Shown here one piece after another: positions 53,913 through 54,077 of a stretch of 64,000 nt of DNA (positions are counted from its first letter, which is position 1; every line of letters starts with the position of its first letter). The position numbers were made by a program, and so were the translations under genes. The notes under the pieces were generated by a model. That model searched no databases, was not told the origin of the DNA, and was given only the letters and a program-made list of their open reading frames with translations. This stretch comes from Escherichia phage Pu-Krd-SF3: the sequence record PQ249397, one strand, 5' to 3'.

Positions 53913-54077
53913 ATGAAAACATATAAAGAATTTATCAAAGAAGATATGGTCGCTGGAGATTCAGGTGGTAGTCCTGAAAATATCTCTACTGGAACAACAT
54001 CAGGCGCTGTAGTAAATAAAGGTCCTGAACAGATTCCTAAAAAGAAAAAAGAGGAATCTAAAGAAAAAGAAGAGTAA
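53913..54077 (+). CDS. small protein (54 aa) with capsid-targeting-like N-terminus MKTYKEFIKED and Lys/Glu-rich tail
   Basis: Below ORF-track cut-off; ATG after gagg at spacing 5; tightly packed between 61.2 and 61. Confidence 0.5.
   Translation: MKTYKEFIKEDMVAGDSGGSPENISTGTTSGAVVNKGPEQIPKKKKEESKEKEE

Follow-up and report, generated by a model that had tools for sequence, protein, structure and literature searches.

Introduction

The closest described systems to the small gene examined in this study belong to the head of bacteriophage T4. The capsid protein gp23 is cut by gp21 after Glu65 (PMC9546572), and the cleavage motif of gp21 has been given as (L/I)-x-E (PMC5694885, PMC9026906). In the unexpanded head, gp23 residues 66-105 are disordered, face the interior and probably touch the scaffolding core, and the gp23 mutations A66D, A94V and G97S change head length (PMC9546572, PMC9958956). 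After expansion this segment moves to the outside, where it forms the N-arm and an N-fist of 25-26 residues, the latter contacting four subunits, half of them in its own capsomer and half in the adjacent one, and helping to form the Soc site (PMC9546572, PMC9958956). The N-fist has been defined as gp23 residues 66-91, and disorder is seen in the N-fists on the portal side, those of the portal-proximal D subunits (PMC7136217); unassigned helical density has also been reported beneath the P domains of gp24* (PMC9546572).

The internal proteins of the head provide a second point of reference. Mutagenesis of IPIII by Mullaney and Black assigned targeting mainly to residues 4 and 7 of its capsid-targeting (CTS) leader and processing to residues 8 and 10; the first 10 residues of IPIII are enough for incorporation, and CTS fusions have packaged foreign proteins such as GFP (PMC9026906). 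Although few assembly pathways have been studied as thoroughly as that of the T4 head, how proteins localise to its scaffolding core is still called mysterious (PMC9958956). Against this background, we observed that gene 61.1, located beside the primase gene, combines within 54 residues a capsid-targeting leader, a predicted gp21 cut site and a copy of the gp23 N-fist.

Results

Location and identity of gene 61.1

The window, by which we mean the whole 64,000-nucleotide stretch that was analysed, is a segment of a Tequatrovirus genome in an orientation reversed relative to the T4 map. Over the 1.8 kb surrounding the gene, Escherichia phages Pu-Krd-SF1 to SF7 show 100% identity and T4 shows 98%; for Pu-Krd-SF7, the 100% identity extends over the 1824 bp compared (window 53285-55108). 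The first-pass annotation had proposed a small ORF with a good Shine-Dalgarno sequence, tightly packed between its neighbours; the ORF and the Shine-Dalgarno sequence were both recovered, as was the spacing of 2 nt to the gene 61 ATG (54078-54079), while the upstream spacer proved to be one base (T, 53912) after the TAA at 53909-53911, and not two. The local gene order is 41, dmd, 61.4 (tifA), sp, 61.2 (AdfA), 61.1, 61, and the coordinates of all features are collected in Table 1.

Table 1. Coordinates of gene 61.1, its parts, its neighbours and the other ORFs with a CTS-type leader (window positions; the slash marks the predicted cut)
Feature	Position	Strand	Remarks
Gene 61.1 ORF	53913..54077	+	ATG, 54 codons, TAA; translation MKTYKEFIKEDMVAGDSGGSPENISTGTTSGAVVNKGPEQIPKKKKEESKEKEE
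Shine-Dalgarno GAGG of 61.1	53904..53907	+	5 nt to ATG; within the last codons of 61.2/adfA
CTS-like leader, codons 1-10	53913..53942	+	MKTYKEFIKE; predicted gp21 site I-K-E/D at its end
Homologue of the gp23* N-fist, codons 11-38	53943..54026	+	DMVAGDSGGSPENISTGTTSGAVVNKGP; corresponds to gp23 66-91 plus G92-P93
Tail, codons 39-54 plus stop	54027..54077	+	EQIPKKKKEESKEKEE; Lys cluster, then acidic end
61.2 (AdfA, anti-DarT factor)	53285..53911	+	Upstream neighbour; Pfam PF23813, E 6e-137; PMC9391042
Gene 61 (DNA primase)	54080..55108	+	Downstream neighbour; conserved synteny partner
61.4 (tifA)	52673-52930	+	Pfam DUF7279
dmd	52489-52671		
dam.1 homologue	55105-55305	-	
Gene 56	~55377-55895		Directly after dam.1 in the window phage
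CTS-consensus ORF	2398-2859	+	phrog_2280 (no assigned function); paralogue of the ORF at 2978
CTS-consensus ORF	2978-3544	+	phrog_2280 (no assigned function); paralogue of the ORF at 2398
CTS-consensus ORF	7728-8009	+	PHROG internal-head or internal-virion-protein family; overlaps the lysozyme gene end by 4 nt
CTS-consensus ORF	8489-8749	+	PHROG internal-head or internal-virion-protein family
CTS-consensus ORF	8811-9386	+	PHROG internal-head or internal-virion-protein family

By its sequence the ORF is T4 gene 61.1, known yet uncharacterised. It is catalogued as "hypothetical protein gp61.1" in T4T (HM137666) and as CDS0231 in Pu-Krd-SF7, so that its earlier description as unannotated is true only of the track that had been read. 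The phrog_1823 profile matches gp61.1 over its whole length (residues 1-54, E 2.4e-33) and the phrog_2086 profile matches residues 8-53 (E 2.3e-16); no family for the short or the long form of gp61.1 was found in Pfam and NCBIfam. The automatic names of 61.1 relatives in public records include 'Major capsid (domain-containing) protein'. Such names are misleading, since 54 residues hold no HK97 body, and they show that annotation pipelines have already picked up the similarity to gp23. A literature search disclosed no paper that treats 61.1 in connection with CTS, gp23 or virions. As a separate observation downstream of primase, the dam methyltransferase gene, present in T4T, is absent from the window between the dam.1 homologue and gene 56.

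Distribution and selection

Gene 61.1 is a real gene under strong purifying selection. Its dN/dS is about 0.1 against Bp7 (Dhakavirus) and Entb_45 (Kanagawavirus), with dS saturated at 1.7-2.0 and dN of about 0.2, and tblastn detected it, at no less than 60% identity, in at least about 1,240 phage records. The frame and the motif are thus kept in related phages, the check that had been suggested for this ORF. A profile search of 1.84 billion representative proteins yielded 50 clusters at 50% identity, all of them family members, and in this same library the short 61.1 profile recovered no full-length gp23 at E <=0.001.

Synteny was compared among the window, T4T, CC31, RB49, Asfd_1, DP45, Bp7, Entb_45, PSE-D1 and KVP40, covering the genera Tequatro-, Dhaka-, Kanagawa-, Jiaoda-, Karam-, Krisch-, Biquarta-, Lazarus- and Schizotequatrovirus. 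In all of this range 61.1 is kept between 41 and 61, usually directly before 61, while the small genes around it vary between genera; RB49 and Aeromonas phage Asfd_1 carry two other ORFs between 61.1 and 61. Gene 61.1 is found beside primase in most non-cyanophage T4-like phages.

Homology to gp23 around the maturation cut

The best conserved part of the 61.1 family, codons 11-38, is homologous to the N-fist of gp23*. BLASTP of gp61.1 against gp23 gave 41% identity over 37 residues (E 7e-8), the gp23 query having been checked as 100% T4 gp23, and in Smith-Waterman comparison none of 2000 shuffles reached the observed score (z = 10.2). In the reverse direction, gp23 residues 59-101 match the 61.1 family profile (E 4.8e-10), and hhalign of the 61.1 family with gp23 gave probabilities of 97% at E 9e-11 and 96% at E 5e-9. 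When 177,635 PDB sequences were searched with the 61.1 profile, gp23 chains were the only matches, and in a local tblastn against four head-gene loci gene 23 was likewise the only match. PHROG models of the internal proteins aligned with residues 1-16 or 1-18 only, at E 0.04-0.34. The first-pass annotation had seen in this body a Gly/Ser/Thr-rich stretch followed by a Lys/Glu-rich tail, which agrees with our counts of 13 G, S or T among the 28 residues 11-38 and of 6 K and 6 E in residues 39-54.

The alignment falls in register with the cleavage site, as I8-K9-E10/D11 is aligned with gp23 L63-T64-E65/A66; gp61.1 residues 2-10 pair with the last residues of the gp23 propeptide and residues 11-36 with the N-fist. 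The two proteins share the skeleton F-[LI]-x-E/x-x-[IV]-[GA]-G-D-x-G-...-I-[AS]-x-G-x-T-S-G-A-V-x-x-x-G-P, followed by basic residues. The Lys cluster of the tail, kept as KKK(R)K across the family, is aligned with gp23 94-101 (AVMGMVRR), the basic start of the N-arm, and hhalign with the long form reaches gp23 residue 103; the homologous span on gp23 is residues 54-103 overall. Judged by these alignments, gp61.1 residues 2-42 are a paralogue of gp23 57-97, that is, of the cleavage site and the N-fist. The acidic end of the tail is specific to the T4 type, and the mature peptide of this type is acidic overall (pI 5.0); the purine-rich codons of the acidic end overlap the ribosome-binding region of gene 61.

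That 61.1 undergoes gene conversion with gene 23 was considered and rejected, for a four-by-four comparison of phages showed no excess within-phage similarity between the two genes. It follows that 61.1 is neither a recent copy of gene 23 nor maintained by conversion, and the sequences point to an old paralogy under its own constraint. We also noticed that codon 12 is an ATG (53946-53948) and that Met12 is invariant in the short and long forms, where gp23 has Ile68; this residue may either have a structural role or serve as an internal start giving an MVAGD... peptide that needs no cleavage.

CTS-like leader and predicted gp21 site

The five other CTS ORFs of the window share the consensus M-K-T-Y-x-E-F-[IL]-x-E, and the N-terminus of gp61.1, described at first reading as capsid-targeting-like, fits this consensus. 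It shares 8 of its 10 residues with MKTYQEFIAE, the CTS of the IPIII type, and retains all four of the mutationally defined residues, Y4, F7, I8 and E10, whereas none of the other window ORFs of at least 20 aa matches the CTS above 4/10. The (L/I)-x-E motif is present as I8-K9-E10/D11, from which we infer cleavage by gp21 after E10 as a predicted event. Recent recombination with the ip genes was rejected as the source of the leader, because the DNA shares only 20-26 of 33 nt with those genes and the likeness lies at the protein level.

The predicted site is kept throughout the family. A Glu stands 0-2 residues ahead of the core in 177 of 180 distinct members, and among these 177 the P3 position is L, I, V, M or F in 159 and L or I in 118. 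In register, the gp24 propeptide and the end of the gp23 propeptide resemble the CTS of the internal proteins, which suggests that the leaders of T4 head proteins are recognised by one code and possibly share an origin.

Leaders of this kind were also seen at uvsW.1, with CTS-like and gp21-site-like beginnings in T4T (MLLEFKQFLYE/ASIDEF; locus L016, 1723-1953) and RB49 (MISFKRFLVE/AAIDGF; locus L009, 14833-15069). UvsW.1 is a small protein that, to our knowledge, is not known as a head protein; either the head receives further, so far unnoticed proteins, or the leader motif is not as specific as had been assumed.

Short and long forms of the family

Two forms of the family were recognised. The short form of 50-60 aa occurs in T4-type phages, Bp7, RB49 and Aeromonas phages, and begins with a CTS-like leader, M-x-x-[FY]-x-x-[FV]-[IVM]-x-E; in distant genera the short forms keep it as M-x-x-F-x-x-[FV]-[VIM]-x-E. 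The long form of about 155 aa (phrog_2086) occurs in CC31 and in RB69-like, RB16/RB43-like, Acinetobacter and KVP40-like phages; here the shared cut site and core are preceded not by the 10-residue leader but by a conserved helical N-domain of about 105 residues, which does not begin with a CTS. Both forms share the motif [hydrophobic]-x-E, 0-1 residue, M-V-A-G-D-S-G-G-x-x-x-N-I-A-S-G-T-T-S-G-A-V-V-N-K-G-P-x-x-x-x-K-K-K-R-K. Being so widely spread, the long form is apparently the ancestral one. Domain fusions were looked for by a profile search of a 5.8-billion-protein set, where the best 120 matches were all of about 155 aa and carried no information on fusions.

In the AlphaFold model of the long form, the helical N-domain is predicted with moderate confidence (mean pLDDT 61, with residues 11-70 at 74-87), and the gp23-like core is predicted to be disordered on its own (pLDDT below 50), comparable to gp23 66-105 in unexpanded heads. 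A Foldseek search of viral models with the long form found only family members and unnamed larger proteins, and no fold was assigned. The idea that T4 61.2 and 61.1 together represent a split long form was discarded, as 61.2 is AdfA and is unrelated to the N-domain (BLASTP E 3.6; Pfam); no relative of the N-domain was detectable in T4-type phages.

Several rearranged ORFs were observed alongside these forms. In Pelagibacter phage HTVC008M (locus L015, 1792-2397 and 2768-3813), one ORF corresponds to the long-form N-domain without the N-fist-like core, and a nearby ORF begins MKTFTDF... and contains EDIANVAGD...KKKK, making it a possible rearranged relative. In the metagenomic relatives P0128, P0149 and P0150, the same ORF continues beyond the core and Lys cluster with another CTS-like motif (e.g. 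MNEVSNFKQFVEGLE) and a domain of about 100 aa, which looks as if a downstream CTS-bearing gene had been fused on. In Bp7, the 146-aa EpBp7_0104 (locus L011, 851-1291) ends in ...SIDDQIFNAFMNRG, the C-terminal sequence of the 208-aa AdfA of the window, suggesting a common C-terminal module on different N-terminal parts.

Expression, detection and fitness

The 61.1 transcript was classed as early in T4 infection data, as were those of ipII, ipIII and gene 40 (PMC9697503), and for this reason the early class need not disqualify 61.1 from a role in the head. No late promoter of the form TATAAATA was found on the + strand of 51000-55200, and thus none within 2.9 kb upstream of 61.1; nor was a sigma-70 promoter specific to the gene identified, sigma-70-like matches occurring at the shuffled expectation.

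Proteomics of infected cells had been suggested as a check on the ORF, and in the T4 infected-cell time-course proteome the gp61.1 protein was not detected (PMC9697503 Table S2). This is weak evidence, because the protein offers just two usable tryptic peptides and its cut form would be semi-tryptic; the peptides concerned are EDMVAGDSGGNPENISTGTTSGAVVNK for the uncut protein, DMVAGD...VVNK, which is semi-tryptic, for the protein cut after E10, and GPEQIPK. The literature search found no virion data set that lists 61.1. In a CRISPRi-ART screen the knock-down of 61.1 was scored "Not Fit" (score -0.84, p 0.93; PMC11879866), which indicates that the gene is dispensable on the laboratory host; individual internal proteins and gene 61 itself were also dispensable in that screen (PMC11879866). 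The main texts of the HIDEN-SEQ and CRISPRi-ART studies make no mention of 61.1.

Discussion

In this study, the gene 61.1 was already known, and what is new is the architecture read from its sequence, namely a CTS leader, a gp21 site, a copy of the capsid N-fist and a Lys cluster. Gp61.1 may be an overlooked head-assembly or capsid-mimic peptide. The reading that we favour, tentatively and at somewhat short of an even chance, is that gp61.1 mimics the gp23 N-terminus and is both targeted to the prohead and processed by gp21. In this mechanism, gp61.1 would bind the assembling scaffolding core by the same contacts as the CTS and as the N-terminal part of gp23 that faces the core, and gp21 would cut it after Glu10 at prohead maturation. 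Cleavage would set free 44 residues (DMVAGD...KKKK...) as a peptide that, at its newly formed N-terminus, mimics gp23*; this best conserved part of gp61.1 would be the functional one. The peptide may then occupy, or compete for, the sites of the gp23 N-terminus, either those on the core, prior to cleavage, or those on the expanded shell; another possibility is that the Lys cluster keeps the peptide on the DNA and that it is ejected. Homology, motif conservation and the CTS consensus are what the sequences show, and targeting, cleavage and the later fate of the peptide are inferred from them. The position of 61.1 among replication and anti-toxin genes, and not among head genes, speaks against a role in the head, as does the acidic T4-type mature peptide when set against the basic internal proteins. 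For the long form, which has no N-terminal CTS, targeting to the head would be pure conjecture.

The neighbourhood of the gene makes a cytoplasmic decoy the main rival, unlikely in our estimation. Here gp61.1 would be an anti-defence factor that is made early, never enters the head and imitates the gp23 N-terminal segment so as to pre-empt a host factor recognising this segment, be it an immune sensor or toxin-antitoxin system set off by capsid protein, or a protease or chaperone, so extending the dmd-tifA-adfA 'anti-TA island' by one gene. The neighbours dmd, tifA (61.4) and adfA (61.2) are proven counter-defence genes, and Srikant et al. call the other genes of the region attractive anti-toxin candidates (PMC9391042). 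The early transcription of 61.1, its dispensability on the laboratory host and its solid homology to gp23 would all fit such a role. The decoy is weakened by the near-universal conservation of the gene and by its conserved cut site and leader: from T4 to KVP40, 61.1 is a near-constant neighbour of primase, whereas counter-defence genes are usually patchy, and a hydrophobic-x-Glu site with a CTS leader has no obvious cytoplasmic role. The known capsid-triggered system for T4 is Lit with its Gol peptide, which uses gp23 93-122 and barely overlaps the mimicked residues 57-97, and we know of no sensor of gp23 66-91.

Doubtful to a greater degree is a broader proposal, in which gp61.1 would be a separately encoded, early-made mini-paralogue of the capsid arm acting in trans, either by saturating, as a decoy, a host sensor or toxin system that responds to this capsid segment, or as a packaged, gp21-cut N-fist plug. 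Such a plug could fill N-fist and N-arm sites that lack a neighbouring capsomer, for example at portal-proximal subunits or at vertices.

The constancy of the synteny could also be explained if gp61.1 were a replication accessory, working with primase or helicase, for example through its Lys tail on DNA, or if 61.1 served the translational coupling of gene 61, its likeness to gp23 and the CTS being a leftover. The tight and very widely conserved linkage to gene 61, with its 2-nt spacer, agrees with this, as do the ribosome-binding region of gene 61 inside the 61.1 tail and the early expression that 61.1 shares with replication genes. Selection is, however, strongest on the gp23-like core and the cut site and not on the 3' end that overlaps the ribosome-binding region, two ORFs lie between 61.1 and 61 in RB49 and Asfd_1, and the Pfam and NCBIfam family searches found no similarity to any replication protein; we regard this explanation as quite improbable.

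The first-pass annotation had suggested that the ORF may be a sixth member of the injected-protein family, far from the ip loci. The leader on which this rested is real and non-random, and the location beside primase, away from those loci, was correctly noted; the body is unrelated to the internal-protein families. As a classical internal protein, gp61.1 would use its CTS to be packaged in many copies, undergo trimming by gp21 and, like IPI*, leave with the DNA at ejection and act on the next host. The consensus CTS with all its functional positions is consistent with this, the Lys cluster could bind DNA, and individual internal proteins are dispensable, as is 61.1. Nevertheless, the mature part is homologous to gp23 and to no internal-protein family, the ip genes are hypervariable at their own loci whereas 61.1 is conserved and lies elsewhere, the T4-type mature peptide is acidic, and a disordered 44-residue peptide may be lost by the route of the scaffold fragments, the capsomer openings of 14-17 angstrom (PMC9546572). 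Taken as a whole, this explanation appears to us improbable, and a little more so than the replication role.

That 61.1 has no function, being a decaying fragment of the duplicated 5' end of gene 23 or a chance ORF, might be argued from its small size, the undetected protein and the knock-down without phenotype, but is effectively refuted by the low dN/dS with saturated synonymous sites, by a frame and motif kept across all those phage records and clusters and by the absence of excess within-phage similarity to gene 23, and is at most a very slight chance.

Returning to gp61.1 as a prohead-targeted mimic, the presence of the three elements in one small dispensable gene makes it a compact probe of core binding, of gp21 recognition and of the N-fist in trans. 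With such a probe one may ask which core partners are used by the CTS and by the gp23 N-terminus, how gp21 recognises its sites and whether an N-fist acts in trans. The leader of 61.1 is also relevant to the engineering of T4 for protein delivery, which relies on the CTS. If gp61.1 is a capsid-mimic decoy in an anti-toxin island, it would represent a new principle of counter-defence; if the trans-acting mini-paralogue of the capsid arm is true, whether as decoy or as plug, it would represent a new class of phage factor.

Comparison with known systems

Among the known systems, gp23 is significantly homologous to gp61.1 in its residues 54-103, the cut of gp23 and the predicted one of gp61.1 falling together in the alignment. 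Gp23 has an HK97-fold body (P, A and I domains) that gp61.1 lacks; Pfam PF07068 covers gp23 88-517, the region missing from gp61.1, which has no Pfam match. The DSGG and KKKK of gp61.1 stand against DHGY and MVRR in gp23, the two families being conserved separately, and on the T4 map about 86 kb lie between gene 23 and 61.1, which is an early gene.

IPI, IPII, IPIII and the other CTS ORFs of the ip loci carry the same 10-residue MKTY-x-EF-[IL]-x-E leader with a gp21-type site as gp61.1, but show no likeness to it beyond residue 18. Unlike them, 61.1 lies off the ip loci, is conserved and not hypervariable, has no late promoter nearby, and would give a much smaller mature product (44 aa).

The propeptide of gp24, MAKINELLRE/S, is likewise a 10-residue leader with E-[LF]-[LI]-x-E that is processed by gp21 at (L/I)-x-E, and gp67 and gp68 are small prohead-core proteins processed by gp21 at the same motif (PMC9546572). 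In contrast to 61.1, the genes of gp67 and gp68 are located in the late head-gene cluster.

Like 61.1, which lies directly downstream of adfA in the anti-toxin island, dmd, tifA and adfA are small early genes that run in the same direction between 41 and 61 and are dispensable on laboratory hosts. They have no sequence relationship to 61.1, which is far more widely conserved. The long form of gp61.1 has the same cut site, the same N-fist-like core and C-terminal Lys cluster, and the same place upstream of primase.
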